Assembly: GCA_963759215.1 (NCBI GenBank)
Contig: CAVWYG010000006.1
Coordinates: 1,243,146 to 1,307,145, forward strand
From: an uncultured Acidobacteriota bacterium
GTDB lineage: Bacteria > Acidobacteriota > Terriglobia > Terriglobales > Acidobacteriaceae
DNA length: 64,000 bases
Direction: 5' to 3'
The translations under genes and the position numbers were made by a program. The notes under the pieces were generated by a model that was not told the origin of the DNA, did not search any database, and saw only the letters and a list, made by a program, of their open reading frames with translations. Shown piece after piece: positions 41,006-58,505 of this stretch. Each line of letters opens with the position of its first letter. Positions within the stretch are counted from its first letter, which is position 1.

Positions 41006-41057
41006 CGGCGTAACCCCCTCGCGAACTTAACGGTACGCAAAAGAAAACCTCGAGGCG

Positions 41058-41071
41058 ATGACCAAAGTCAC
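41058..41071. promoter_or_regulatory. CRP/HcpR-type box gATGACcaaagTCACg, 53 bp upstream of nnrS (39443-41005)
   Basis: Palindrome read directly. Confidence 0.55.
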
Positions 41072-41189
41072 GGTCGAGCTCAATTTCACCTCAACACCGC
41101 AACGTTCTGAGCCTTATCGTCCTTTCGCTCATTTCGTGTTCTCCTTGGGGCTTTGAAGGCGAGTTATCGAGTGTATATGTGCTGCTGCG

Positions 41190-42386: not shown

Positions 42387-42446
42387 GATACTACCTCACT
42401 CTAGCTATAGATTTGCAGTTGCCGGCCTCTCTGCAAACGACTGAAG

Positions 42447-43826
42447 TCACAGGTTTACGACATTCCTGACCGAATCGTGAGGAGCAGAATGCCGGTCAAT
42501 CTGTACCAGGCGCTCGGAGAGCCGCTGAGAGCGGAAGGTCAGGGTCATGTTCACCGCGAAAAGAGTGACGGCCGTCAGTTCGGTGAGCGCCGAGATGGGC
42601 AGGATTTTCCATGCGCTCTGCAAGATGTCCTGGTAGGCGAGCACCTCGGAGGAGACGCGCAGCAGGCATCCCACTGTCAGCAGGCAGAGGACTATTCCCA
42701 TCAGTCGCGGGCTGTACAGCAATCGCATTCCGCTGAATGCAGGCAGAACTCGCTGTCCAATCGCAAACACCATCGTGGCAACGAAGCCAACGGTCAGAGC
42801 GTGGCGCGATGCGCCCCAGATGCCGTCATGGTTGGTTGCGAAGGCCGCCCACACGCCCAGCATGGCTGCCACAACAAGCCAGCCGTAAGCCAGGCGGATG
42901 AAATACGGGAAGGCGGGGTGAACGCCCTTTGTCTTGGCCGGCTGAAACGACCGAGTCTGAATTCGCAGTGCGATATTCGATAGTACGGCGCCGCCCAGCA
43001 AAAGAAGCACTGCGACCCGGAAGGCACCTGCCAAGGCGGCAACCACCCCCGTAGCGTTGAGCGCTAGCACAATCAGGAGCCCGCGATTGCAAGGGCTGCG
43101 AGTTCCCAGAAAAATGGGCAGCCAGCGCGCACTGAATCCCCAGACGAATGGCACCATAAAGCCCCACGCCATCAGCACTAGGTAGCGCTCATCAAAGTTC
43201 TGCGGAAAAGCGGGAGAGCTTCCGTGTATGGCTGCCCAGATGCATCCGCCAAGATTGGCGGCAAGAGTTTCGAGCAAGCCCAGGGTTCCGGCTACTACCA
43301 CAAGAATCCACGTTTCAAGCTTAGGGCGTCCTTGCGATGGGCTCGTAGGTTTATGGGTAGACACTGCTCGGAAAAAGATAAGGAATGCCAGGAACTCAAG
43401 CGATGCAGAGATGGGAAGGATGGTGCGCCAGTGCCATTCGTAGATGCCGGCCGCCCACCTTCCGGTTACTCCCACGGTCCACAGCACCCAGCAAACCCAG
43501 GCCTCCCACAGTGCGAACGGCTGTGCGTTGCGAACTCGCGGAATTGAGTAGAAGCCGATGCCGAGAATGAACGTGCCGATCCATCCAAAGACCTGAGCGT
43601 GGCCGTGTGCTTGGATCCACGCGGCTGAGATCGAATCGCCCGCGTGCTTGCTACTGATGGAGAACAGATTCCAGACGCCGAGAAATGTCCCAGGCAGCAG
43701 CATGAAGGCCAGACCGGTGCAGATAAAGAGCATCACGATGAAGGAGAGAGCAGTTTCGCGCTGGCGGGTGGCCATGACGCGAGTCTCTTCTTCACTTGAA
43801 AGCGCTATATTGTTGATCAGTTGCAT
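42447..43826 (-). CDS. nnrS: NnrS family protein (second paralog)
   Basis: 12 TM segments with the NnrS His pattern (WIQAHGHAQVFGW); the start may be at 43775 (MATRQRE). Confidence 0.8.
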   Translation of the reverse strand: MQLINNIALSSEEETRVMATRQRETALSFIVMLFICTGLAFMLLPGTFLGVWNLFSISSKHAGDSISAAWIQAHGHAQVFGWIGTFILGIGFYSIPRVRNAQPFALWEAWVCWVLWTVGVTGRWAAGIYEWHWRTILPISASLEFLAFLIFFRAVSTHKPTSPSQGRPKLETWILVVVAGTLGLLETLAANLGGCIWAAIHGSSPAFPQNFDERYLVLMAWGFMVPFVWGFSARWLPIFLGTRSPCNRGLLIVLALNATGVVAALAGAFRVAVLLLLGGAVLSNIALRIQTRSFQPAKTKGVHPAFPYFIRLAYGWLVVAAMLGVWAAFATNHDGIWGASRHALTVGFVATMVFAIGQRVLPAFSGMRLLYSPRLMGIVLCLLTVGCLLRVSSEVLAYQDILQSAWKILPISALTELTAVTLFAVNMTLTFRSQRLSERLVQIDRHSAPHDSVRNVVNL

Positions 43827-43928
43827 AAGACATCCTCTCGCCGCTCAGTCGGAGCGCAGATGAAGGGGCGGTGCGTCACGCATCGCGCGCACTTGCACTC
43901 AAACTACCCGCAAGCACGCCTCGCTGCG

Positions 43929-43942
43929 ATGACCAAGGTCAC
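43929..43942. promoter_or_regulatory. CRP/HcpR-type box gATGACcaaggTCACA, ~100 bp upstream of the second nnrS
   Basis: Palindrome read directly. Confidence 0.55.
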
Positions 43943-44330
43943 ACTTTCTCAGAATCGCCCGGGTGACTCGATACAGAGCGCAAGGTTGGCGGGGCCGACC
44001 CCAAGGGGCAGCGTCTTGGGGTGAACATTCTGTTCGCCTGGTGCTCGCCGTCTCGGCGTGTCCTCGTTTGGCCAATGCCGGGTGGAGCGCGCCTCGCGCC
44101 GTGTGCCGGTTGGCGGAACATCACTTTGCTTCAGACGTGTCTCAGGGTTCTGCCGCAATATCAAAGAATCTTTCGATCATGGATCGCCCTACGGCCTCGA
44201 CTCTCTCGCGCTGCTCTACTGCAGAAGCCCGAACAGTCGAAGGCAGATGAGGCTCCCAAGCAGACCAAGTCTCAAGATCAGCTTCAATGTGAAATTGGAG
44301 AGCATATACGCACCGTGCGAATCGAAATGC

Positions 44331-45686: not shown

Positions 45687-45735
45687 ATCAATCTCCTTGA
45701 GTCTTGAAGATAGAAGAGTGCGGTGGTTGCTGCAG

Positions 45736-45749
45736 CGACCAAAGTCACT
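45736..45749. promoter_or_regulatory. CRP/HcpR-type box aGCGACcaaagTCACt in the divergent ric2/crp2 intergenic region
   Basis: Palindrome read directly (one mismatch in the left half-site). Confidence 0.5.
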
Positions 45750-45839
45750 TCCACGAGAAAGCAATAGAATAGGGCGTACTTACCTGCCGCCGATGGCGTC
45801 GTTCCAGTTTTCAACGGCGCTGGAGGCGTGATTCGAGGG

Positions 45840-46548
45840 ATGCGATTGAACACGAAGCGTGTTGATCTGGCGGAAGTTCTTCAGAAGACAGCCCTGTTTT
45901 CCAGTCTTTCTCAACCCGAGTTGCAGTTGCTGGCCACCAAAACGGTCAGGAAGCTGTTCGGTGCGGGGGAAGCTCTGTTCCACGAAGGCGATCCCTGCAA
46001 GGGATTGCACATCATCTCGCGAGGACAGGTGAGGATTTTCAAGCCATCGGCCAGCGGACGCGAGCAGGTTCTGGCCGTGAACGTTGCCGGCGAATCGGTT
46101 GCCGAACTTCCGGTCTTTGATGACGGCCCGTATCCGGCCTCCGGAATGGCGATCGAGGAAACCGAGATTGCGTTTATCTCGCGTAAGGACTCCGTGATTA
46201 TTGTCTGGCTCGCCCGGAAGTCGCACTCAAGGTTCTGGCTTTTGTCGGCGCCAGGCTGCGCAGGCTGGTCGGCATAATTGAGGAGCTGTCCTTTACGACC
46301 ACGCGTCAGCGCCTTGTCTCCCTCTGGTTCGTCTGGCGCAAAGCGACGGACGGAAAACCGAGAAGGGTATTGAGGTCCTGCTGCCCGGTACCAACCAGGA
46401 GCTCGCAAATCAACTGGGAACGGTGCGCGAAGTGATTTCGCGTAACCTCATGCGGCTGCAGGCTGAGGGATTGCTGGAAGTGGATGCCCGGCAGATCGTG
46501 ATCAAAGACGTGAAGGGACTGGCCGCGCTGCTGGAGGCGGTGCAATAA
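45840..46548 (+). CDS. Crp/Fnr family transcriptional regulator, paralog 2; two frameshifts (~46200 and ~46340)
   Basis: N-terminal 120 aa closely parallels crp1. Continuation ...RPEVALKVLAFVGARLRRLVGIIEELSFTT and ...KTEKGIEVLLPGTNQELANQLGTVREVISRNLMRLQAEGLLEVD is found in the other two frames. Confidence 0.65.
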
Positions 46549-46834
46549 GCCGCAAAAACAGGGTTAGAAATTCTTCGCTGGGAATGGCCGTAGACGGCCG
46601 ACCATTGGCGAAATGGACAATCGTTGTCGGAAGGCAGTTTCGCTTGGAGGCAACGGTTGGCAGGTTGCTGAAGGGTTGCATAACGTGTAAACCTGTGCGC
46701 CGCGTATTTTGTCAGTCAGTATTATCTCTTACGTAAATTCCGTCTGCTGGATTTGCTTCATACGCTCGGTAGGAGGCCCGGCAGATTTTGCAAACGGGTG
46801 GGCGAACGTAACGCGTCGAAAGGAATGTTGGCCT

Positions 46835-48052
46835 ATGCCCGCATCATTTGAGGAAGCACGCCGCATCATTCTGGAACATGTCACGCCGCTCGGCGCAGAG
46901 CGTGTTGGACTGATCGAGTCGCTCGGACGAGTGCTGGCGGGGGATATTACGGCACCGTGGGACCTCCCCTTGTTCAGCAACTCCGCGATGGACGGGTACG
47001 CGGTGCGTGCCGCAGATTGCCGGGATGCGCGGGCGCTACCGATCATCGACTATGTTTCCGCCGGAGGGCGCGCTACGAAATCAGTCATGCCGGGAACGGC
47101 AATCAAGATCATGACCGGGGCGCCGCTTCCAGAAGCCAGTGACAGCATTGTGCCCATAGAGGACGCAGTGGAATCTGACGGCACAGTGCGCGTGATGCAA
47201 CCGGTAGCACTGCATCAGTATGTTCGTTTTGCGGGAGAAGACGTGCGTAAAGGCGAAACCATTCTCACCTCTGGAACGCTAGTCCGTCCCTATGAAATTA
47301 ACTTGCTCGCTAGCTTTGGAATGGAGCAGGTGACAGTTGTGCGGAGGCCGAGAGTTGCGATAGTCGCAACCGGGGACGAATTAGTTGCGTTAGGCGAGAC
47401 CCCGTCGATCGGGCAGATCGTGAACAGCAATTCTTATTCTTTGGCAGCGGCAATCACCAGCGTGGGCGCGCTGCCGGTGCTGGTGGGCATTGCGCGCGAC
47501 GACGTCGACAGCCATCGCGAGAAACTGGCGGAAGGATTGAAGGCAGATGTGCTGGTTACCTCCGCCGGGGTTTCAATGGGCGACCGCGATCTGGTGCGCG
47601 AGGTGCTGGATGAGCTTGGAGTGGAGATCGTCTTCTGGCGGGTGAAAGTAAAGCCGGGAAAAGGGCTGGCATTCGGCAAGAACGGAGGGACGCTGGTGTT
47701 CGCGCTTCCGGGAAACCCAGTCTCGACGATGCTGACTTTCGAGGAGTTTGTAGCTCCGGCTTTGTTGAAGATGATGGGACACAGACAACCGGTGAAGCCG
47801 CTGTTCCCGGCTGTGCTGCAAAGCGACCTGAAGAAGAAGGCGGGACAGACACATCTGGTGCGAGTGAGGCTGGAATACTACGGCGGAAAGTACCTGGCGT
47901 GGAGCGCGGGCAAGCAAGATACGGGCCTACTGAAAACCCTGTTGCAGGCGAACGCCGTCGCCGTGCTTCCCGCAGATCGCGATGTATTTGCCGCAGGCGA
48001 AGAAATTCAAGTCCATCTGCTCGACGGATCTGTTGGAATGACGGCGCTGTAG
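46835..48052 (+). CDS. moeA: molybdopterin molybdotransferase MoeA
   Basis: MoeA N-terminal domain, MoCF_biosynth domain (GDEL, GGVSMGD motifs) and MoeA C-terminal domain; 405 aa. Confidence 0.85.
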   Translation: MPASFEEARRIILEHVTPLGAERVGLIESLGRVLAGDITAPWDLPLFSNSAMDGYAVRAADCRDARALPIIDYVSAGGRATKSVMPGTAIKIMTGAPLPEASDSIVPIEDAVESDGTVRVMQPVALHQYVRFAGEDVRKGETILTSGTLVRPYEINLLASFGMEQVTVVRRPRVAIVATGDELVALGETPSIGQIVNSNSYSLAAAITSVGALPVLVGIARDDVDSHREKLAEGLKADVLVTSAGVSMGDRDLVREVLDELGVEIVFWRVKVKPGKGLAFGKNGGTLVFALPGNPVSTMLTFEEFVAPALLKMMGHRQPVKPLFPAVLQSDLKKKAGQTHLVRVRLEYYGGKYLAWSAGKQDTGLLKTLLQANAVAVLPADRDVFAAGEEIQVHLLDGSVGMTAL

Positions 48053-48297
48053 CCTGCCCACGATTCACTCCTGAATCGTGGGCAGAATTAAGGGGTAACA
48101 CAAGGACGCTAATGCCGAAGGCGCTATCACTGGTGGGTTCAATCTTCGGATCGCGCAATTGAGACGACAAATCCGCCTGCTCGAAGGCATGTACTCGCGC
48201 GAGGGTGTAGATCAATCTTCTGACTTCAGCAGGAACGCGGCCGTTGAGAGTGACTAAGGTCATAGCAAGACGCCTGATGGAAGAGCAGGATTGCATC

Positions 48298-48690
48298 ATG
48301 ACCATTGAGACCTCGTCTGAAACCGTATTCAATAGCAGCATCTTCGAAATCGCATCCTCATTGCAAACTGCGGATCACGGCACCGGCGGACGGATCAACC
48401 GCGTGCTGATCGATTTGCCGGGCCTGCGTGTTCTACTCATTTCACTTACGGCAGGAGCTCATGTGCCTGAACATAAAGTTGCAGGCGCAATTACCGTCCA
48501 GCCTGTGCTCGGGCGTGTTCAGATGATTGCTTTCGGCTTGGGCAGCGAAGCCTCGGAAACCCAACGCGCCCAGCAGCAATATGAGCTTGGAGTCGGCAGC
48601 CTGCTTTCGCTGAAAGGCGGTGTTCCACACGATGTGCGAGCTTTGGAGGAGAGTTGTATCTTGGTTTCGATTGTCAGGGCGATCCGATGA
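48298..48690 (+). CDS. cupin domain protein
   Basis: Double-stranded beta-helix motif with H...H...E (AHVPEHKVAGAITVQPVLGRVQM, GVPHDV). Confidence 0.55.
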   Translation: MTIETSSETVFNSSIFEIASSLQTADHGTGGRINRVLIDLPGLRVLLISLTAGAHVPEHKVAGAITVQPVLGRVQMIAFGLGSEASETQRAQQQYELGVGSLLSLKGGVPHDVRALEESCILVSIVRAIR

Positions 48691-48805
48691 CGATACGTCG
48701 CTGCTGAGACTTAAGTCATTGGTTGCGGGAAGTCGCTATGGCTTCCTGATGTAGACTAGCCGCTGCGGTGAATCCGGTAAGATCCGGCGGCAAAGAGGAA
48801 CTCAT

Positions 48806-49990
48806 ATGCAACCGTCTCCTAAACTTCAGCTCGCTCTCGGCACGGGATCTTTTGCTTTCTGCTTTGCAGTCTTCGGCTCACTCTCTGCGATGATGCCAAT
48901 ACTGAGCAGGCAAATGCATCTCTCTCCAGTGCAGAAGAGCATCGCCGTAGCGGTCCCCGTTTTACTGGGCAGCCTGGGCCGGATCCCCCTGGGCATGTTG
49001 ACGGATCGCTTTGGTGGGCGCTCGGTATTCAGTGTCGTGATGTTGATCTCCGCTATTCCCGCTTTTCTTATGGGAACCGCGCACAACTATGAGCACCTGT
49101 TGTTTTACGGATTCTTCATAGGAATTGGGCTGGCGAGTTTTTCGGTTGGCGTAGGTTTTGTCAGCGGATGGTACAGCGCCGAGCGGCAAGGCTTTGCGCT
49201 TGGCGTGTATGGAGCGGGAAATATCGGCCAGTCGTTGGCTGCGTTTGGCGCGCCTTTCATCGCCGCCGTAGCGGGAGTTCGATGGGGTTTTTGGACCTTC
49301 GGTGTCCTGCTCTCGATTTGGTTGCTGCTGTTCGCGCTTCTGGCGCGTGACGCTCCGCGCCGCGTTCCGATCAAATCGTTCAGGGATACGGTGCGCCCTC
49401 TGAACGATTCCCGGAGCTGGGTTCTGAGTCTCTACTACTTCCTCACCTTCGGCGGTTTCGTTGCGATGGCAGTGTACCTGCCGATCTTCCTGACAGAGAT
49501 GTTCAAGCTAACGCCGCAGGATGCTGGAATGCGAACGGCTGGATTTGTTGTACTGGCTACGATCATGCGGCCAATTGGCGGAACGCTCGCCGACAAAGTT
49601 GGCGGCCGAACAATTTTGAAGTGGGTATTTCCCGCGACGGCTCTGATGGCCATGTTCCTGGCTTGCCCGCGGATGATCACCTTCACGATCGGGGCTCTTG
49701 GAATGGCTGTTGCCATTGGTCTTGGCAACGGAGCGGTCTTCAAACTCGTGCCGGAGTACTTCCCTAATTCCGTGGGCAGTGTGACTGGGTTGGTTGGTGC
49801 CGCCGGAGGGCTGGGCGGTTTTTTCCCTCCGTTATTGCTGGGCGTCGTCAAGCAGCAGACAGGTAGTTTCTCGCTCGGGTTCGTGCTGCTTGGTGTGTTT
49901 GCGCTGATATGTCTTTTCATCCTTCTGCGGCGATCATCGGCGCCGAACATAGCAATTAGTTTCCCAGAGGCAGGAGATGCGACAGCCTGA
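48806..49990 (+). CDS. MFS transporter, NarK/NasA-like (putative nitrate/nitrite transporter)
   Basis: 12-TM MFS protein with [10 protein letters not shown]-type motifs in TM2-3 and TM8-9, placed in a molybdoenzyme cluster. Confidence 0.65.
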
Positions 49991-51065
49991 ATTTCCAGTT
50001 CGAGGTTCCGACACTGCACACGCCTTCGGATGGGGCGTGCTCGTGGCTTCGTCTCTGATTGCAGCCATCTTCATCGGCAGCCGCGGCCTGAAGGATTTCG
50101 ATCCCGCGCTGGTTTCCTATGCAGGCGCATCGGTCTTTGCCGCTTTCGGGCTGGGCTACCGTTATTCCATGTGGCTGCGAAGGCCGCCCACTCGCCTGTA
50201 TTGGTACCGGGGATGGCAACTGTTTCTGCAACCCAGGCGATTGCCCGGAAATATCCTGCATCTGGGCAGAATATTCTTGAACAACATCGTTCTGCAGAAG
50301 TTTATCCAGAGGCGTTCCCGCATTCGCTGGACCGCGCACTGGTTCCTGGCCTGGGGATGCTTGCTCGCTGCGGCAGTTACCTTTCCCTTGTCGTTCGGCT
50401 GGGTAAGATTTGAGACAGCGCGCGACAGTCAGGAGATATACAACGCCTTCATGTTCGGCATCCCGGTTGGCAGCTTCCACCTTGGAAGCGTGGTGGCGGA
50501 GCTGACCTTCAACATCCTTGATATTGCGGCGGTGATGGTTCTAATCGGCGTTTTCTTCGCCATGTGGAGGCGCGCCCGCGACCGAGATGCAAGGTCTGTC
50601 CAGCAGTTCTCGAACGATCTGTTGCCGCTGATTCTGCTGTTTGCAATTTCGATCACGGGACTCTTTCTCACCGCATCGACGCACCTGATGCATGGACTGC
50701 ACTATGTGTTCCTCTCGCAACTCCATGCCATCACGGTGATCTTCACGCTGCTTTACCTGCCCTTCGGCAAGTTCTTTCATATTTTTCAGCGTCCAGCGCA
50801 GCTTGGAGTGGACTTCTACAAGATGGCGGGAGCAGAGGGCCAGCAGGCGAGCTGCGTGCGCTGCGGTCAGCTCTACGGATCGCGAATGCAAATGGAAGAT
50901 CTGAAAGCCGTGCAGGCTGCAATCGGCATCCGGTACCAGATGGCCGACGGAACTCATTATCAGGATGTGTGTCCCGCCTGCCGCCGCAAGAATCTCGCGC
51001 TAGCACAGGACGGTCTCTGGAAGTCCCTTGGCAGGGACGTGCGTGGAATGGGAAAGGAGTTGTAA
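49977..51065 (+). CDS. NarI/DsrM-like diheme cytochrome b membrane subunit with a C-terminal Cys4 zinc-ribbon extension
   Basis: 5 TM segments. The last helix, [24 protein letters not shown], parallels NarI PFTRLVHIWSAP with the H-x17-H spacing; the C-terminus has CVRCGQ...CPACRRK. Confidence 0.6.
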
Positions 51066-51066
51066 G

Positions 51067-53286
51067 GTGGCGAAGCTTCCTACAGATATTCCTGAGTTGG
51101 TGAATCAATTTGGTCCCACACTACACACGGTTCCTCCCGGCGGCTGGGCTCACGCCGGCAAGGACGAGAAGTTGGTGAAGACGCATTGCTGTTTCTGCGG
51201 CCAGCAGTGCGGAATCCAACTGCGCGTGATCGAGAACAAGGTCGTGGGTTTTGAGCCGTGGGAGGACTTTCCCTTCAATCGCGGCAAGCTCTGCCCTAAG
51301 GGTGTAAAGCGCTACATGCAGGACGAGCACCCGGACCGCCTGAAGAGCCCGTTGCAACGCGTGCAAGGACAAGGTTTCTCGCCGATCGCCTGGGATGCGG
51401 CGATGGAGCGCGTCGTCGCCGAGATTCGCCGCATTCAGCTCCAGTATGGCAATGATGCATTCGCGCTGCTGACAGGGGCTTCGCTCACCAATGAGAAGGC
51501 TTACCTGATGGGCAAGTTCGCGCGCGTCGCCTTGAAGACGGCGAACATCGACTACAACGGGCGCCTCTGCATGGTCTCGGCAGGTGCGGCTTCCAAGAAA
51601 GTTTTCGGCATCGACCGCAGTGCTAACCCGTGGAGCGACATTGCGAAATCCAAGGTCATCCTGGTTGCCGGTGCAAACATCGCAGAGTGTGCGCCTATTA
51701 CCACCGACTATTTGTGGCAGGCGCGCGAAAACGGCGGCAAACTTATTATCCTCGACCCGCGCATGACGCCCATCGCGCGCAATGCCGATCTGTTCATCCC
51801 CGTGCGCTCGGGCGGCGACATTGGGGTCTTCAACGGAATGTTGCACATCATGATCGAACGCGGCTGGATCGACCGCGAGTTCATTGCGCAGCACACCACC
51901 GGCTTTGACTCCGTGATGGAGACAGTGAAGAAGTACACGCCGGAGTATGCCGCCAAGATCGCGGGAGTTCCACCGGAAATGATTGTCAAGGCAGCTGAGC
52001 TATGGGGGCCGGCGCCGACCAGCTTCCTGCTGCACGCCCGCGGCATTGAGCACCACTCCAAAGGCGTGGACAACTGCATCGCGGCCATCAACCTGGTTGT
52101 GGCCAGCGGACGCATTGGCCGCGAGGGTTGCGGCTACGCCATGATCACCGGGCAAGGCAACGGACAGGGCGCGCGCGAGCAGGGACAAAAGTGCGACCAA
52201 CTTCCCGGCAGCCGCGACATCAGCAATCCGGAGCATCGCAAATATATCGCGGGTGTATGGGGCGTTCCCGAAGAATCGATTCCGCAGAAGGGTTTGTCGG
52301 CGGTTCCGCTGGTGGAAGCCATTCACGATGGCAAGATCAAGGGGTTGCTGTCGATCTGCTTTAATCCTGCGGTGTCGCTGCCGGATGGCAACTACGTTCG
52401 CGAGGCACTTGAGAAGCTGGAGTTCTACGTCAACATCGATTTCTTCCTCTCAGAGACCGCTCGATACGCCGACATCGTTTTACCGGGCTCGCTGATGGAG
52501 GAAGACGAAGGCACGACAACCAACGTCGAAGGCCGTGTGATCCGCCACCGCCAGGCTGTAACGCCGCCCGAAGGCGCGCGCGAGGACTGGGCGATCATCA
52601 ACGAAATCGCAGCCCGGCTCGGTTACGCAGACAAGTTCAGCGCCGCGCCGCGCGAGATCTTCGAAGAGTTGCGCATCGCCTCCAAGGGCGGCGTCTCGGA
52701 TTATTCCGGCATGACGTGGGACCGCATTGACGAGAGCTACGGCCTGTTCTGGCCTTGTCCCGAGCCAGGACATCCGGGCACTCCGCGTTTGTATGAGGGC
52801 GGAAAATTCGGCCATCCCGACGGCAAAGCGCACTTCATTCCGATTGAGTGGCGTCCTTCGGCGGAGATGCCGGATGAAGAGTATCCGATCATTCTCACTA
52901 CTGGCCGTGTGGTCTCGCACTTTCTTTCCGGCACACAGACGCGCCGCATCGGAGGACTGATGGAGCAGTATCCGCAGCCACGCTGCGAGATACATCCCCG
53001 TCTCGCGGACAAGCTAGGCATCGCCGACGGCGATTTCGTCAAGGTCGAGAGCCGCCGCGGGGAGATCGTGGTGCGGGCGCAGGTAGTGAAGACGATTCGG
53101 CCAGACACTGTCTTCGTCCCTTATCACTGGCCGCTGGATCGCTCAGCGAACAACTGCACCATCCGTGCCATCGACCCGGTCTCGAATATTCCTGAATTCA
53201 AGATCTGCGCGGTTCGCGTGAGCAAGACGGAGGCCCCTACCGATGCGATCGCGCAACTTGAGATGGAGGCGGGAGGCATTCGATGA
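51067..53286 (+). CDS. molybdopterin (Mo-bisPGD) oxidoreductase catalytic subunit, Nas/Nap/Fdh clade; no signal peptide
   Basis: N-terminal [4Fe-4S] motif [10 protein letters not shown]...C, MopB domain, C-terminal molydop_binding domain; GTG start with an AAGGAG RBS; 739 aa. Confidence 0.8.
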
Positions 53287-53909
53287 GCGAAATGGCTTTC
53301 TTCATCGATCACTCGCGCTGCATCGGATGCCAGTCGTGCGTGCAGGCGTGCGCCGAATGCGACACCCATCGCGGCGTCAGCATGATTCATCTGGAGACAA
53401 TCGATCGTTCGGACAGTGTCCAGACGGCCCCGCAGGTCTGCATGCATTGTGAAGACCCGATCTGTGCGCGTGTCTGCCCGGCCGACGCTATCAAGAAGAC
53501 CCCTGATGGCGTAGTGCAGAGTTCCCTGAAGCCGCGTTGCATTGGGTGCTCGAACTGCGTCATGTCGTGTCCGTTCGGTGTGCCAAAGTACCGCGCAGAG
53601 ATCGACCAGATGATGAAGTGTGACATGTGCTACGACCGCAGCAGCGTTGGCAAGAAGCCGATGTGTGCCACCGTTTGCCCATCCGGCGCATTGGCCTTTA
53701 CGACGATGGAAGAGATTCAGCGCACCCGCGGCGGAATTCCGATCAACTCGTGGCGCTTTGGCGATGAAATTGTAAAGACCAAGGTTTACGTAATGGTTCC
53801 GCGCGAGGTCGAACGTGTCGACGTGGAGCTTGTGCAGATCACATCCACTCCCGCTGCGCTGCCGGATGATCCCTATGATGTTGCGCTGATGCTGGAGGAC
53901 GCGCGATGA
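53283..53909 (+). CDS. 4x[4Fe-4S] ferredoxin-type iron-sulfur subunit (NrfC/PsrB/DmsB-like)
   Basis: Four Cys clusters: [42 protein letters not shown]...CATVCP. Confidence 0.8.
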
Positions 53910-54418
53910 CCGTGGATAAGAAAGACGCCACCTGTGGTAAGGCTCCGAAATGGAGGCAGGATTTCCCCATCGAGTGGGAAGGCGACCATTACGTTACTCG
54001 ACGCGAGATGGTGAAGTTCATGACCCTCGGCTCCGCGCTGCTGGCAGCGGCAAACTGGATCGTTGCAATTGCCGGAAGCTTAGTTCATCGCGGATCTCAT
54101 GCAGAGCGCTACATCGGCGAGGCTCGCGCTCTGGAACAGACGGGCTCACTTCTCTTCCGCTACCCGACAGATGCGGACCCGTGCATCGCAGTCCATACGC
54201 CGGAAGGCAAGCTGGTTGCCTATTCGCAGGTCTGTACGCATCTCTCCTGTGCCGTTGTGTATGACAAAAGCGAGAACGCTCTGATCTGTCCGTGCCACAA
54301 CGGCGTCTTCAACATCGATCATGGGAGCCCGACTGCCGGACCACCCACTCGGTCACTTTCTCGGGTAAAGATCGAGCAGCGTGGTGACCAACTCTTTGCA
54401 ACGGAACTGGAGTCCTGA
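53906..54418 (+). CDS. Rieske [2Fe-2S] protein with a Tat-like RR motif and hydrophobic anchor
   Basis: TRREMVKF then [20 protein letters not shown]; Rieske boxes CTHLSC and CPCHNG. Confidence 0.8.
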
Positions 54419-54655
54419 ATGAGCGTGCGCAGCCAGGGAACGACTCTATTTTCGGCGATCCTGATTCTAGTAGGAATAACGGTAGTAGTGCAGCTCTGGT
54501 TGCTTACTGTCTCTACCGAGGCACTGCTCAGCGGGCAGACGAAGACACTGATCCCTGCCGCGGCAGGATCGTCGTTGTTGCTGTTGATCAGCGCGTGCCT
54601 GCTTCGCTATGTGTATCGTTTTGACCACGACGTTGAGCGGGAGTCCCAGGAGTAG
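54419..54655 (+). CDS. small two-TM membrane protein (78 aa), possible accessory subunit
   Basis: The ORF follows directly after the Rieske stop; it has two hydrophobic helices. Confidence 0.4.
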   Translation: MSVRSQGTTLFSAILILVGITVVVQLWLLTVSTEALLSGQTKTLIPAAAGSSLLLLISACLLRYVYRFDHDVERESQE

Positions 54656-54731: not shown

Positions 54732-54749
54732 GGTGTGACTTTAGTCACA
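54732..54749. promoter_or_regulatory. perfect CRP/HcpR-type box gTGTGActttagTCACAg, 77 bp upstream of hcp
   Basis: TGTGA-N6-TCACA read directly. Confidence 0.65.
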
Positions 54750-54823
54750 GTGCGCTGCTCCTACAGTCCCTATGCTTGTGTTCGCTAAAGGAACTCAATC
54801 TTCATCAGGCTGGAATCAAACAC

Positions 54824-56449
54824 ATGTTCTGCTATCAATGTGAGCAAACCTATCGCGGTACGGGCTGCACCGACCTTGGGGTCTGCGGCAAAGACGATAC
54901 CACCGCAACTTTGCAAGATCTGCTCGTGTTTGCGGCCAAGGGCATCGCAATGTATGCCCATCGTGCGCGTCAAGCCGGCGCGGCCGATCCGGCAATCGAT
55001 TCGTTTGTGATCGATTGCCTGTTTGCAACCGGAACGAACGTAAATTTCGATCCCGAGCGTCTCGCCAGCCTGATTGCCAGCGCTGCTACGGTTCGCGATC
55101 AGGCTCAGAAGTTGTATGAGCGCGCCAGCGCCGCGGCTCCTCTGGCTGGTCCGGCCGCGTTCAAGCCGGCAGCTTCCATCGATGGCTTGGTTGCACAAGG
55201 TAAGCAACATCTGATTCCGGATCAACTTCTTGCGGCGGGAACGGAGACGGGGAACCTGCAGGAGCTAATCCTATACGGGCTGAAGGGCCTGGGCGCCTAT
55301 GCGGCGCACGCGAAACGTCTCGGCGCGACCGATGCCGCTGCGAACGCCACCATGCTGGAGATCCTGGATTTTCTTACCCTGCCCGCACCTACCCTTGATG
55401 AGCTGCTTGCGATGGTGCTTCGCACCGGCGAACTGAATTACCGCATCATGCAGCTCCTGGACAAGGCAAACACCGATGCCTTCGGACACCCGCAGCCAAC
55501 TGCCGTGCGCCTGCATCCGCGTAAAGGAAAGGCAATTTGCGTTTCAGGACACGACTTAGCCGACCTTTATGAGTTGCTGAAACAAACCGAGGGCACTGGA
55601 ATTCAGATCTATACACATGGCGAGATGCTGCCCGCGCATGGTTACCCCAAGCTCAAGGCCTTCAAACATCTGGCCGGCAACTTTGGCGGTGGATGGCAGG
55701 ACCAGCAGAAAGAATTCCCCAACTTCCCCGGGCCCGTTGTCATGACCTCCAACTGCATCCAGGATCCGAAGGATTACAAGGACAAGGTCTTTACCACGGG
55801 GCCGACCGCATGGCCGGGCGTCCGCCACATCGCCGACCACGACTTCTCGGCTGTGATCGAGGCCGCTTTGCGCGCTCCAGGTTACGAGCAGGATGGCGCT
55901 GGCGATGAGATCACGGTTGGCTTTGGCCACAATGCCGTGCTGAGCGTGGCCGGCACAGTGGTGGATGCCGTGAAGGCAGGCGCCATCCGGCACTTCTTCC
56001 TGATTGGTGGCTGCGATGGCGCGCGTCCGGGACGAAACTACTACACCGAGTTCGCGGAAGCCGTGCCAAATGATTGCCTCATTATGACTCTTGCCTGCGG
56101 AAAGTACCGCTTCAACAAGTTGGACTTCGGCCAGATTGGCGGCTTGCCGCGCCTGCTCGACCTCGGACAGTGCAACGACGCCTACTCGGCTTTGCAGATT
56201 GCAGGCGCGCTGGCCAATGCCTTCCAATGCGGCATCAATGACCTGCCGCTTTCGCTCGTGTTGTCGTGGTACGAGCAAAAGGCAGTTGCAATTCTGCTGA
56301 CGCTGCTCCACCTTGGAGTGCGCAACATTCGCATCGGCCCAACTCTGCCGGCCTTCATTACGCCTACAGTCCTGGGTGTGTTGCACGACAAGTTCAACCT
56401 CATGGCGATCACTGAACCAAAACAGGATCTTGCCGCGATATTGAACTAA
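54824..56449 (+). CDS. hcp: hybrid-cluster protein / hydroxylamine reductase
   Basis: N-terminal MFCYQCEQT...C...C cubane cluster motif; the hybrid-cluster ligands (CVSGHD, CIQDP, H/E/C) are conserved; 541 aa. Confidence 0.9.
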   Translation: MFCYQCEQTYRGTGCTDLGVCGKDDTTATLQDLLVFAAKGIAMYAHRARQAGAADPAIDSFVIDCLFATGTNVNFDPERLASLIASAATVRDQAQKLYERASAAAPLAGPAAFKPAASIDGLVAQGKQHLIPDQLLAAGTETGNLQELILYGLKGLGAYAAHAKRLGATDAAANATMLEILDFLTLPAPTLDELLAMVLRTGELNYRIMQLLDKANTDAFGHPQPTAVRLHPRKGKAICVSGHDLADLYELLKQTEGTGIQIYTHGEMLPAHGYPKLKAFKHLAGNFGGGWQDQQKEFPNFPGPVVMTSNCIQDPKDYKDKVFTTGPTAWPGVRHIADHDFSAVIEAALRAPGYEQDGAGDEITVGFGHNAVLSVAGTVVDAVKAGAIRHFFLIGGCDGARPGRNYYTEFAEAVPNDCLIMTLACGKYRFNKLDFGQIGGLPRLLDLGQCNDAYSALQIAGALANAFQCGINDLPLSLVLSWYEQKAVAILLTLLHLGVRNIRIGPTLPAFITPTVLGVLHDKFNLMAITEPKQDLAAILN

Positions 56450-56544: not shown

Positions 56545-57894
56545 ATGCGCAGGATATTCCTTCAAGCTGTTGGTCCAATGGTTTGTGTGCTCACGTTGGC
56601 TCCAACGGGATGGCCACAGGTTGCAGCGGCAATGCCCGCATCGGTCGCCAAACTGGCGGCTTCGGCTTCAAAAGAGAGCCAGGCCTGCATAGCCTGCCAC
56701 CAGGAGAAAGCGACTCCGCTGGCAGTGCAGCAGTGGGCGGAGAGCAAGCACGCCATAAGCGGTATTGGCTGCTATGAGTGCCACCAGGCGGGCAAGGACA
56801 GGCCCGACTCCTTTGAGCACTTCAATTACCGGATCTCGGTCGTGGTGTCGCCCAAAGTGTGCGGGACGTGTCATGCGCAGCAGACGGCAGAATTCGAAGC
56901 CAGTCATCATGCAATGGCGGGCGAGATTCTCGGCTCCCTGGACAATGTGCTTGGCGACACCATCGAAGGGCCGCAGGCCGCGATTAACGGTTGCAGGAAG
57001 TGTCATGGCAGCGTGGTGAAGGTGATCGGAAACGGGAAACTCGATTCCTCAACCTGGCCCAACGAAGGCATTGGCCGCATCAACCCAGATGGCAGCAAGG
57101 GATCATGCTCGGTGTGCCATAGCCGCCACACCTTCTCGCTGGCGATTGCACGGCAACCGGAAAGCTGTGGCTATTGCCATCTCGGCCCCGACCATCCGCA
57201 GACAGAAATCTATGCCGAAAGTAAACATGGCGTGACCTACCGCTCGCTGATCGGCCAGATGAATCTGAACTCCGATAGCTGGGTTCTGGGCAAGGACTAC
57301 AACGTTGCGCCCACCTGCGATACCTGTCACATGGGAGCTACTTCCAAGCTGCCTGCCACGCATGACGTTGGCGCGCGGCTCTCCTGGAACCTGCGTCCGG
57401 AAATTGCCATCAAGCAGCAGAACTGGCAGGACAAGCGCGGTGTGATGAAGTCGGTTTGTCTGAACTGCCACGCATCCGACTGGGTGGACAACTTCTACAC
57501 CCAATTTGACGGTGTGGTGGATATGGGAAACGACAAGTTCTTCGCTCCCTCCAAGGAGATCATGGCGAAGTTGCAGAAGGCCGGTAAGATCACGCCTACG
57601 CCGTTTGACACCAAGATCAAGTGGACTTACTTCGAGCTATGGCATCACCAGGGTCGCCGAGCGCGTATGGGCGCTTCCATGAATGGCCCGGATTACGTGC
57701 AATGGCTCGGCTTCTACGAAGTGGCCAAGATCTTCTACAGCGAGTTCATCCCCGAGGCCGAGGCGTTGATGCCCGGGGTGACTGCCGAGACGATGAACAG
57801 CGATGCGCACAAGTGGATCAAGGGCCTCTCTGCCGAAGAAAGGCAGCGTATCCGCGAATTTTATCAAAAGAGATACGAACAGAGTCCGCGCTAA
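56545..57894 (+). CDS. octaheme c-type cytochrome, hydroxylamine-oxidoreductase (HAO)-family-like, secreted
   Basis: Signal peptide; eight CxxCH motifs (CIACH, CYECH, CGTCH, CRKCH, CSVCH, CGYCH, CDTCH, CLNCH); ~420-aa mature protein. Confidence 0.75.
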   Translation: MRRIFLQAVGPMVCVLTLAPTGWPQVAAAMPASVAKLAASASKESQACIACHQEKATPLAVQQWAESKHAISGIGCYECHQAGKDRPDSFEHFNYRISVVVSPKVCGTCHAQQTAEFEASHHAMAGEILGSLDNVLGDTIEGPQAAINGCRKCHGSVVKVIGNGKLDSSTWPNEGIGRINPDGSKGSCSVCHSRHTFSLAIARQPESCGYCHLGPDHPQTEIYAESKHGVTYRSLIGQMNLNSDSWVLGKDYNVAPTCDTCHMGATSKLPATHDVGARLSWNLRPEIAIKQQNWQDKRGVMKSVCLNCHASDWVDNFYTQFDGVVDMGNDKFFAPSKEIMAKLQKAGKITPTPFDTKIKWTYFELWHHQGRRARMGASMNGPDYVQWLGFYEVAKIFYSEFIPEAEALMPGVTAETMNSDAHKWIKGLSAEERQRIREFYQKRYEQSPR

Positions 57895-57989: not shown

Positions 57990-58505
57990 ATGCGGAACGA
58001 GCAAAAAGTCCTAGGTCGGTTACCTGTGCACCCGAGTAACAGGGAAGAGGCCGGAGCTTATCTGCTCCAAGTCAACGGATTGGTCGAGCAAACGCTGGAA
58101 CTGACTTTGTCCGACTTCGAAAGATTGCCACAGCGAGATGTCACAGAGGATTTTACCTGCGAAGAGGGCTGGACCGTACCGGCGGTTAAGTGGTGGGGTG
58201 TAACCATGGAATCCGTACTCGCTCTTGCGGGGGCACATCCCGAAGCCCAATGGGTTCAGGCAGGCGCTGGAGAGTTTACTGTCCCCATCCCGCTACAAGA
58301 CGCCCGACGGGCACTACTTGCCACTCGCCTGGGAGATGGCGCTCTGCCGTCCGAGCACGGTGGCCCGGTTCGGTTGGTAGTGCCCGGCGGCGACTGCTGG
58401 ACGAGCATAAAATGGCTAGATCACCTGGAGTTGCGTGCCGAGCCAGGGCCCAACACTGGAAAAGCGATGGCGCTAGATCGATTGCGTTGCAAGTCATTGA
58501 AGTAA
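57990..58505 (+). CDS. sulfite-oxidase-family molybdopterin-binding domain protein (short, no signal peptide)
   Basis: DFTCEEGWTVPAVKWWGV (Mo-ligand Cys motif) ... GGPVRLVVPGGDCWTSIKWL. Confidence 0.7.
   Translation: MRNEQKVLGRLPVHPSNREEAGAYLLQVNGLVEQTLELTLSDFERLPQRDVTEDFTCEEGWTVPAVKWWGVTMESVLALAGAHPEAQWVQAGAGEFTVPIPLQDARRALLATRLGDGALPSEHGGPVRLVVPGGDCWTSIKWLDHLELRAEPGPNTGKAMALDRLRCKSLK

Follow-up and report, generated by a model that had tools for sequence, protein, structure and literature searches.

A putative quinol-dependent, membrane-bound nitrate reductase combining a Nas-like catalytic subunit, a NarI-fold anchor and a Tat-Rieske protein in an uncultured member of the Acidobacteriaceae

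The window analysed here is a 64,000-nucleotide stretch of contig CAVWYG010000006.1 (positions 1,243,146 to 1,307,145 of the forward strand) from an uncultured bacterium of the Acidobacteriaceae, and our subject is a run of six genes within it, from a narK-like transporter gene to the gene of a small membrane protein. Judged from the sequence and its relatives, it seems fairly probable that the product of the operon is a nitrate reductase of an uncharacterised type, bound to the membrane and dependent on quinol. The six open reading frames (ORFs) were found where an initial annotation of the same DNA had placed them, and encode the following proteins, with lengths in amino acids (aa).

48806-49990, + strand: narK-like nitrate/nitrite transporter of the major facilitator superfamily (MFS), 394 aa (PF07690, 180 bits; TIGR00886, 217 bits)
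49977-51065, + strand: NarI-like membrane anchor, 362 aa, assigned from its fold and its conserved His and Cys residues
51067-53286, + strand: catalytic molybdenum-bis(pyranopterin guanine dinucleotide) (Mo-bisPGD) subunit, 739 aa (domains Molybdop_Fe4S4, Molybdopterin and Molydop_binding)
53283-53909, + strand: iron–sulfur (FeS) subunit with four [4Fe-4S] clusters, 208 aa (Fer4_11, 73 bits; 16 Cys in four cluster motifs)
53906-54418, + strand: Rieske [2Fe-2S] protein, 170 aa (PF00355, 39.8 bits)
54419-54655, + strand: DUF6755 protein with two transmembrane (TM) helices, 78 aa (PF20540, 63.1 bits)

The narK-like protein scores below the NarK-family cut-off of TIGR00886 (311.7 bits). The ORF of the Mo subunit opens at TTG 51028; its orthologues begin with MAKLP, which corresponds to GTG 51067 and gives the 739-aa protein. 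Because the overlaps between adjacent genes measure 14, 4 and 4 nt and the two remaining gaps 1 and 0 nt, the arrangement indicates a single, translationally coupled operon, and such coupling fits co-transcription of the genes, on which the initial annotation had made its proposal of one enzyme depend.

That proposal also required the module (anchor, Mo, FeS, Rieske and DUF6755 genes) to be conserved in related genomes, as proved to be the case. Anchor relatives form more than 6049 clusters at 90% identity and, at 50% identity, 1123 clusters at E ≤ 1e-3, 202 of them at E ≤ 1e-30. Loci were compared in the best 80 of 226 species-level genomes (one genome per species) containing an anchor relative; all 80 are from Acidobacteriota (Acidobacteriaceae, Terracidiphilus, Granulicella, Korobacteraceae, Vicinamibacterales and Angelobacter) or from an 'unclassified bacterium', and the isolate Edaphobacter aggregans DSM 19364 is among them. 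The five genes are colinear in 71 of the 72 acidobacterial loci that are long enough, and the module occurs in other phyla as well; narK stands directly upstream in 71 of 78 loci, and the flanks vary from locus to locus while the order of the core holds. A plasmid of Deinococcus sp. NW-56 carries the module with NarK encoded downstream, the anchor being 48% identical (and annotated 'MFS transporter') and the Mo subunit 60% identical, and the chromosome of Mesobacillus foraminis (locus L101) carries it with a 67-aa, two-TM protein in the place of DUF6755 after the Rieske gene. In the latter locus, an inserted ParA/Mrp (CbiA-family) ATPase gene (L101 13131-13862) separates the FeS gene from the Rieske gene; its product may be an Fe-S cluster maturation factor. 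The module is also found in metagenome-assembled genomes labelled Binatia and Elusimicrobiota. Three distant variants on unbinned metagenomic contigs (L087, L089 and L092) keep the anchor, Mo, FeS and Rieske genes, L087 together with a NarL-type two-component system and a downstream NarK, and L089 with an NrtABC-like importer on one side and, on the other, a CysJ-like flavoprotein and a nitrite reductase of the NirA family (675 bits, cut-off 523), which by its gene content is an assimilatory setting. Where the contig of an anchor relative continues downstream (L093, L094 and L095, and L090 and L091 for the opening of the gene), what comes next is the Mo gene or the start of an uncharacterised ORF; the contigs of P0151, P0122, P0202 and P0138 are too short to give the full gene context. 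The Rieske gene is retained in every variant whose contig is complete through that position. From the synteny and the translational coupling, we infer that the five proteins would form one complex.

Among profile hidden Markov models (HMMs), the best match of the Mo subunit is NasC (NF047855, an equivalog model) at 805 bits, and NasC is likewise the best match of all module variants (787-924 bits), every one of these scores lying below the cut-off of 1100. The alpha-subunit model of formate dehydrogenase (FDH; TIGR01591) gives 635.5 bits against a cut-off of 666.25, and the NasC model exceeds it by 170-245 bits in every variant; the NapA models give 290-298 bits against cut-offs of 904-930, and NarG (TIGR01580) gives 59.9 bits against 1084. 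The best matches in the Protein Data Bank (PDB) are cytoplasmic formate dehydrogenases, including FdhF of the hydrogen-dependent CO2 reductase (HDCR). The active-site sequence GRLCMVSAG aligns with RHCMASA of NapA and RLCMSSA of NasA, where FdhF has RVUHGPS, and the region around the Mo ligand reads GR(L/F/Y)CM(V/A/T/S)SA in all module variants. The protein has the R-x-C-M-x-S-A motif together with the Cys motif of an N-terminal [4Fe-4S] cluster (FS0), as in Nap and Nas enzymes, and its catalytic pair is Cys-Met rather than the Sec/Cys-His pair of the formate dehydrogenases. Module Mo subunits are 45-74% identical to one another and 28-36% identical to the NasA, NapA and FdhF proteins compared, and they form a distinct clade in a small neighbour-joining tree of module sequences and annotated NapA, FdhF and NasA sequences from plasmid records, without Bacillus NasC and cyanobacterial NarB. 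A 35-aa N-terminal extension (MAKLP..FGP.L..PPGGW) is specific to the clade. A firm position within assimilatory NasA, with separately encoded electron donors, would have spoken against the initial annotation; instead, NasC is the best match yet remains below its cut-off, the sequences form their own clade and the co-encoded electron-transfer partners are always present, so that, on sequence grounds, the Mo subunit is a distinct branch of the Nas-like nitrate reductases. The absence of a signal for twin-arginine translocation (Tat), remarked on earlier, was also borne out: the N-terminus has neither an RR pair nor an h-region, RR occurs within the first 45 aa of just five of 77 orthologues, and neither a signal peptide nor a TM helix was found in the Mo or the FeS subunit.

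The FeS subunit gives 105 bits with the DmsB model and 96 bits with that of FDH-beta, both below the equivalog cut-offs, and 35.2 bits with NarH (TIGR01660), for which the cut-off is 524; its PDB matches are FdnH, PsrB and HycB3. It is 70-98% identical across the loci and has four complete Cys motifs, and by its sequence it is a four-cluster [4Fe-4S] electron-transfer protein of the DmsB/FdnH/HycB-like kind. Catalytic, four-cluster and membrane-anchor genes are encoded together here, as in the complex iron–sulfur molybdoenzymes (CISM).

The anchor had been described as a NarI-like dihaem cytochrome b with an additional Cys4 ribbon, of which the NarI fold and the Cys4 domain are borne out and the word dihaem is not, only H121, H250 and H268 being conserved as histidines. 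Its score with PF02665 (the NarI gamma family) is 20.3 bits, under the gathering score of 22.9, its HMM matches to QmoC, TmcC and TcuB are weak, and a sequence search of the PDB returned no real match, only a chance antibody. The AlphaFold model has strong fold matches solely to EtfD and NarI; it consists of six TM helices, a long helical loop (68-114), a three-stranded beta-sheet (143-168) and a C-terminal CxxC...CxxC ribbon. Because the family-wide net charge is +8.4 for the loop, compared with -1 for the sheet region, the anchor is predicted to be N-in/C-in, with the basic loop and the Cys4 domain in the cytoplasm and the beta-sheet in the periplasm. The N-in orientation is further supported by genuine NarK(MFS)-anchor fusion proteins in three independent 50%-identity clusters (P0122, P0173 and P0197), because the C-terminus of MFS transporters is cytoplasmic. 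Two fusions of the anchor to the Mo subunit (P0218 and P0219) are probably frameshift artefacts and were excluded as evidence: P0218 is garbled, and P0219 departs from the family right after CRR and then runs into the normal Mo start codon. RefSeq and GenBank label the NarI-fold anchor 'MFS transporter' (L086 7786-8898; P0031, P0092, P0108 and P0271-P0276), a mis-annotation that has probably spread from the natural NarK-anchor fusions.

Among anchor relatives, the most distant of which share 28% identity, H250 and C293 never vary, and H121, H268, C296, C332 and C335 are kept in at least 90%. The motif H-x17-H...PF(G/S)(K/R)(F/L)(F/I)HI(F/W) matches the helix of NarI that bears His187 and His205; H250 and H268 have the same 18-residue spacing, and H121 matches His56. 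The four histidines of two b haems are not all present: the position 10 residues after H121, that of NarI His66, is Ala131. His66 helps to form the quinol site of NarI; its equivalent has been lost at the outer face of the anchor. The invariant H236 of the Acidobacteria was considered as the missing ligand of a distal haem and rejected as a family-wide one, since it is absent from Deinococcus and other relatives. EtfD has one haem b, next to which lies a site for menaquinone (PMC13083937). Taking fold and ligands together, the model suggests that the anchor is probably a b-type cytochrome with the NarI fold.

The Rieske protein exceeds the PF00355 cut-off of 20.3 bits and has the CxH...CxxH ligands; its CTHLSC...CPCH sequence is of the disulfide-bearing bc/Aio type, and its best PDB matches are the Thermus bc Rieske protein and AioB, although none of the specific-family HMM cut-offs for QcrA, PetC and AioB is reached. 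A Tat-like motif and membrane anchor had been pointed out in it, and we find TRREMVKF followed by a hydrophobic stretch, as in a Tat substrate, that forms a TM helix; both the N-terminal sequence W(R/K)xDFP(I/V)EWEGDHYV(T/S)RRE(M/L)VKF and the ligand motifs are invariant in 70 orthologues. More distant relatives have canonical Tat motifs, namely SRREFTRFL in Deinococcus, NRRAFLK in M. foraminis and, in L087, NRRGFVG followed by an AxA site. The Rieske domain very probably lies on the outer side of the membrane, because the Tat motif and TM helix are conserved and the motifs of these relatives are textbook ones. In L087 (11736-12245), and also in L088, an in-frame TGA of the Rieske gene falls exactly on the codon for the disulfide Cys of CPCH (C-P-TGA-H-K-G-L-F), after which the frame continues normally. 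This codon may stand for selenocysteine or be a sequencing error; there are hairpins downstream, but the folding is only marginally better than that of shuffled sequences (z = -2.2).

The small protein, described beforehand as having two TM helices and 78 residues, does so, and belongs to DUF6755, with a score well over the gathering score of 27. It is predicted from charge bias to be N-in/C-in. Its gene directly follows the Rieske gene in 73 of the 80 genome loci, and also in Deinococcus and L092; DUF6755 is an accessory of one subclade. The acidic, invariant, cytoplasmic N-terminal peptide of the Rieske protein, the 35-aa extension of the Mo subunit and DUF6755 occur together in the Acidobacteria/Deinococcus subclade, whereas the Bacillus-type subclade has none of the three. 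The subunits may be tethered to one another by them in the cytoplasm.

Taken together, these features suggest the following mechanism, in which we infer which cofactors the anchor binds, that quinol is the donor, on which side the Mo and FeS subunits lie and what the Rieske protein does. NarK would import nitrate into the cytoplasm and probably export nitrite, and nitrate would be reduced to nitrite at the Mo-bisPGD centre of the Nas/NarB-like subunit, at the cytoplasmic face of the membrane. Nitrate is suggested as the substrate because NasC is the best HMM, the active site is of the R-x-C-M type and the module is linked to narK, NrtABC-like and NirA genes. Electrons would be passed to the Mo centre along the four clusters of the 208-aa FeS subunit and the [4Fe-4S] cluster that the Mo subunit itself contains. 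The FeS subunit would dock on the large, basic cytoplasmic surface of the anchor and its Cys4 domain, and the anchor would draw the electrons from the (mena)quinol pool. A cytoplasmic position of the Mo and FeS subunits, in contact with the anchor, is favoured by the nitrate importer that accompanies the module in most of the loci examined, the importer-anchor fusions of some lineages, the large, conserved cytoplasmic parts of the anchor and the absence of export signals from the Mo and FeS subunits. The Tat-inserted Rieske protein, with DUF6755 in this clade, would lie against the anchor on its outer face; being retained in every variant in which it could have been seen, it is probably part of the side at which electrons enter and quinol is oxidised. 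Electrons would then cross the membrane inwards, as in NarGHI, so that the reaction could conserve energy, and in other lineages the same module would be wired to NrtABC and NirA for assimilation. The initial annotation had offered a choice between a new membrane-bound nitrate (or other oxyanion) reductase and a transmembrane conduit between a Rieske centre in the periplasm and a Mo site in the cytoplasm; the results are compatible with either and single out neither, and they are probably two descriptions of one complex.

Several observations weigh against this picture. NarI oxidises quinol without a Rieske protein, and the picture does not account for the need of one here; the Rieske centre may be a relay in a linear chain, the primary oxidant of quinol or a branch towards periplasmic acceptors. 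The replacement of the His66 equivalent by Ala131, together with the one-haem EtfD as best match, means that a transmembrane wire of two haems is not assured, and without such a wire a periplasmic Rieske centre would be electronically isolated. The Crp/Fnr-family gene beside the operon is frameshifted in the window. Finally, L089 is assimilatory and a probably related system of Bacillus bataviensis has been read as assimilatory (PMC3475470), so the term 'respiratory' cannot be extended to the whole family. A different use of the Rieske centre, which we consider quite unlikely, is that it forms with the NarI-fold cytochrome b a Qo-like, bifurcating site of quinol oxidation, evolved independently of bc1 and b6f, at which one electron goes to the high-potential Rieske centre and the other, of low potential, traverses the membrane by way of haem b, bound for the FeS chain and then the low-potential Mo centre. 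The Rieske electron may then pass to periplasmic acceptors such as cytochromes c or, here, the neighbouring octahaem nitrite/hydroxylamine reductase. If this were true, one complex would supply electrons both to nitrate in the cytoplasm and to another acceptor beyond the membrane, and it would be explained how quinol can drive a catalytic subunit of the 'assimilatory type'.

The sidedness of the catalytic half might also be the reverse of that in the membrane-bound, cytoplasm-facing enzyme we favour. Export of signal-less Mo subunits by hitch-hiking on a partner is established for AioAB and DmsAB, the only signal peptide of the module is the invariant twin-arginine signal of the Rieske protein, AioB is among the best matches of that protein, and the families nearest to the FeS subunit (DmsB, FdnH, HybA and PsrB) are mostly periplasmic. 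The folded Mo and FeS subunits could on these grounds associate with the Rieske protein in the cytoplasm and be exported on its signal as a periplasmic, Rieske-anchored nitrate reductase, with the anchor serving only as a quinol dehydrogenase and NarK handling nitrite. However, a near-universal nitrate importer (NarK, or the NrtABC-like one in L089), fused to the anchor in three clusters, makes little sense for a periplasmic site; the cytoplasmic loop 68-114 and the Cys4 domain, which are the largest and most conserved soluble parts of the anchor, would be left without a partner; the nearest enzymes to the Mo subunit are cytoplasmic (NasC among the HMMs, FdhF of HDCR in the PDB); and the nitrite formed in L089 is consumed by a cytoplasmic NirA. 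We therefore think this arrangement, the chief alternative, unlikely. That the Mo subunit is an ordinary soluble assimilatory NasC/NarB, lying beside unrelated membrane and Rieske genes, appears very improbable. Such a view would fit NasC as the best HMM, the annotation of acidobacterial copies as nasA (PMC5900883), the assimilatory cluster of L089 and the known soluble Rieske-type NasG/NirD partners of Nas (PMC3475470), but four to five genes keep their order and their translational coupling in Acidobacteriota, Deinococcus, a Bacillus relative and unbinned contigs alike, between flanks that are entirely different, and the Mo subunit is encoded next in every anchor relative with an identifiable downstream gene. 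Moreover, the Rieske protein is a membrane-anchored protein of the disulfide type with a Tat motif rather than NirD-like, the Mo subunit falls under the NasC equivalog cut-off, and no NasB, ferredoxin or flavodoxin-type donor is found among the annotated flanking clusters of the acidobacterial copies. Most improbable, in our judgement, is that the Mo subunit acts on a substrate other than nitrate, such as formate, chlorate/perchlorate, selenate or an N- or S-oxide. The FDH-alpha score falls just short of its cut-off, the best solved structures are formate dehydrogenases and the Mo subunit reaches no family-specific cut-off at all; nevertheless, the NasC model outscores that of FDH in every variant by the margin given above, the ligand Cys is followed by Met as in Nap and Nas while the Sec/Cys-His pair of the formate dehydrogenases is absent, and contexts with NarK, NrtABC-like, NirA, Hcp, hydroxylamine oxidoreductase (HAO), qNor and NnrS genes point to N-oxyanions.

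Compared with NarGHI, the proposed complex has in common a cytoplasm-facing Mo-bisPGD subunit, a four-cluster FeS protein and a membrane subunit with the NarI fold, as well as a narK gene in the operon and an expected inward transfer of electrons. It differs in that its catalytic subunit is of the Nas type, with 739 aa and a Cys ligand motif, rather than a NarG of ~1200 aa; its FeS protein has 208 aa and is DmsB-like, not of the NarH type; its anchor has six TM helices and the Cys4 domain and lacks the His66 equivalent; and there is no NarJ, whereas Tat-Rieske and DUF6755 subunits are added. To NasC, NarB and NasA it is linked by a Mo subunit that is nearest to NasC in a full-length alignment, by R-x-C-M, by its predicted cytoplasmic location, by the NarK/Nrt association and by NirA in L089; its electrons, in contrast, would arrive through a co-encoded FeS protein, NarI-fold anchor and Rieske protein rather than from NasB/NADH, ferredoxin or flavodoxin, and the acidobacterial module sits in a putative regulon for N-oxide stress and respiration. 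With AioAB it shares a signal-less Mo-bisPGD subunit beside a Rieske protein that bears the sole Tat signal, but the Aio models give only 157 bits against 359 for the large subunit and 45 against 95.65 for the small one, and Aio, in which AioA contains a [3Fe-4S] cluster, lacks a four-cluster subunit, a membrane cytochrome b and a transporter and directs its electrons outwards to cytochrome c or azurin.

The earlier statement that Aio is the only Mo enzyme with a Rieske partner has to be withdrawn, as haloarchaeal nar clusters also contain Rieske proteins. In the haloarchaeal pNar system (NarB Rieske, NarC cytochrome b and NarGH), the genes of a nitrate reductase and a membrane cytochrome b are likewise accompanied by one for a Rieske protein, and the module shares with this system and with Rieske/cytochrome b complexes a Rieske protein of the Tat-dependent, membrane-anchored, disulfide type. 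The haloarchaeal cytochrome b is of the bc1 type and the NarG is Tat-exported and of the Nar type, whereas the module has a cytochrome b with the NarI fold and a signal-less Mo subunit; no bc-type cytochrome b or Qo (PEWY) protein was found among the operon proteins or the scanned ORFs of the 36.9-61.9 kb region. In mycobacterial EtfD, DsrMK, HdrDE, TmcBC and QmoC, as would be the case in the module, a haem protein with the NarI fold links the quinone pool to a cytoplasmic FeS chain. The module has no CCG or HdrD-like domains, its partner is a molybdoenzyme and the periplasmic partner is a Rieske protein rather than a cytochrome c; EtfD, for its part, has one haem and reduces menaquinone. Another related case is B. 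bataviensis, in which nasC (729 aa) is linked to FeS and Rieske genes (Heylen & Keltjens 2012, PMC3475470), probably as the Bacillus form of the module, as in M. foraminis. Heylen & Keltjens proposed from this linkage an 'alternative' assimilatory system; they note the linkage only, and no membrane anchor, Tat signal, topology, complex or measurements (PMC3475470).

No paper describing the complex was found in the literature on DUF6755 or on Rieske proteins with nitrate reductase, Acidobacteria, NarI or quinol. What is most likely new here is a Nas-like catalytic subunit in a membrane-bound nitrate reductase of the CISM type with an added Tat-Rieske subunit. It would be a new nitrate reductase assembly of bioenergetic interest, and the first case that we found in which a cytochrome b of the NarI fold is paired with a Tat-exported Rieske protein. 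Acidobacterial nitrate reducers with 'nasA' genes only have been reported, among them Granulicella mallensis, in whose genome no more than a 'nasA' was found (Eichorst et al. 2018, PMC5900883). Its strain MP5ACTX8 and strain KBS 96 reduce nitrate and lack Nar and Nap; in Sulfobacillus, the electron donor of NasC-like enzymes has been called 'unclear' (Justice et al. 2014, PMC4378227). The module could explain the reduction of nitrate to nitrite in Acidobacteria without Nar and Nap, and also from where the NasC-like enzymes of some Firmicutes, with their 'unclear' donor, receive electrons. It is widespread in the Acidobacteriota, one of the dominant phyla of soil. At present its genes go under the names 'MFS transporter', 'molybdopterin oxidoreductase', '4Fe-4S protein', 'Rieske protein' and 'DUF6755', and surveys of the nitrogen cycle that use narG and napA as dissimilatory and nasA as assimilatory markers would miss or misfile the enzyme. 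E. aggregans DSM 19364, Deinococcus sp. NW-56 and M. foraminis are cultured carriers.

The operon lies in an island of genes for N-oxide metabolism, which includes qNor, two NnrS genes, a radical-SAM/SPASM gene, RIC/ScdA and a Crp/Fnr-family gene. Palindromes of the form GAC-N4-GTC, first picked out by eye, precede eight transcription units of the island as a box with the consensus ~TGTGAC-N4-GTCACA and an A/T-rich spacer. Their positions, with no strand assigned, are as follows.

48705-48720: palindromic box TGAGACTTAAGTCATT, ~90 nt upstream of narK
54734-54749: perfect palindrome TGTGACTTTAGTCACA of the same type, ~75 nt upstream of the hcp start codon
39359-39374: box ahead of qNor
41057-41072: box ahead of NnrS
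42436-42451: box ahead of the radical-SAM gene
43928-43943: box ahead of NnrS
45734-45749: box ahead of RIC
48249-48264: box of orf148

Of 25 occurrences of GAC-N4-GTC in the whole window, 11 are intergenic, though only 14% of the sequence is, and eight of these 11 lie in the island. Of 73 related loci, 50 have the motif in the 300 nt that precede narK, compared with 0.087 expected per 310 nt. The boxes are putative operators of one Crp/Fnr-family (HcpR-like) regulon, an assignment made because of their TGTGA-N6-TCACA form and the adjacent regulator gene. The canonical FNR/Dnr box TTGAT-N4-ATCAA was rejected as a candidate, with 18 matches against 19.5 expected; a scan for sigma-70-like promoters found none, and terminators were not in excess. 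The Crp/Fnr-family gene (45828-46540, + strand) matches a 238-aa orthologue in three reading frames, which implies two frameshifts, and is either a pseudogene or the product of indel errors in the assembly. Because the palindrome is shared with the hcp, qNor, NnrS and RIC genes, and because the flanks are of the N-oxide kind, the gene context suggests that the operon most likely serves dissimilatory nitrate reduction in this genome.

The immediate flanks are those given in the initial annotation, with moeA upstream (46709-48052) and, downstream, hcp and an octahaem cytochrome gene.

54776-56449, probable start ATG 54824, + strand: hybrid-cluster protein Hcp (Prismane, 531 bits)
56545-57894, + strand: secreted octahaem cytochrome c of the HAO family, with eight CxxCH motifs (PF13447, 88 bits)

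Hcp scores 771 bits with the hydroxylamine reductase model NF003658 (cut-off 367), and its gene is probably in the same regulon as the narK operon. The octahaem cytochrome is a candidate periplasmic nitrite/hydroxylamine reductase; its gene adjoins the module in eight of the 85 related loci compared, and no NrfH/NapC-type quinol dehydrogenase partner for it was seen nearby. It is followed by a gene (57990-58505) for a 171-aa protein with a Mo domain of the sulfite oxidase type (Oxidored_molyb), and the same pair stands beside the module in L012. The genes that recur in the flanks of other loci are those for RIC, NnrS, Crp/Fnr, hemerythrins, a ClC channel, hao and qNor; neither NirA nor NirBD is among the annotated recurrent flanking-gene clusters of the acidobacterial loci. 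The ClC-type channel, which has CBS domains, is encoded next to the module, upstream of narK, in 14 loci (L081, L012 and others), and could be a second pathway for an anion, nitrate or nitrite. Between moeA and narK lies orf148 (48244-48690, + strand), which encodes a 148-aa protein of no Pfam family and carries its palindromic box at the 5' end; weak relatives of it (30-32% identity) occur near the module in L051 and L072.

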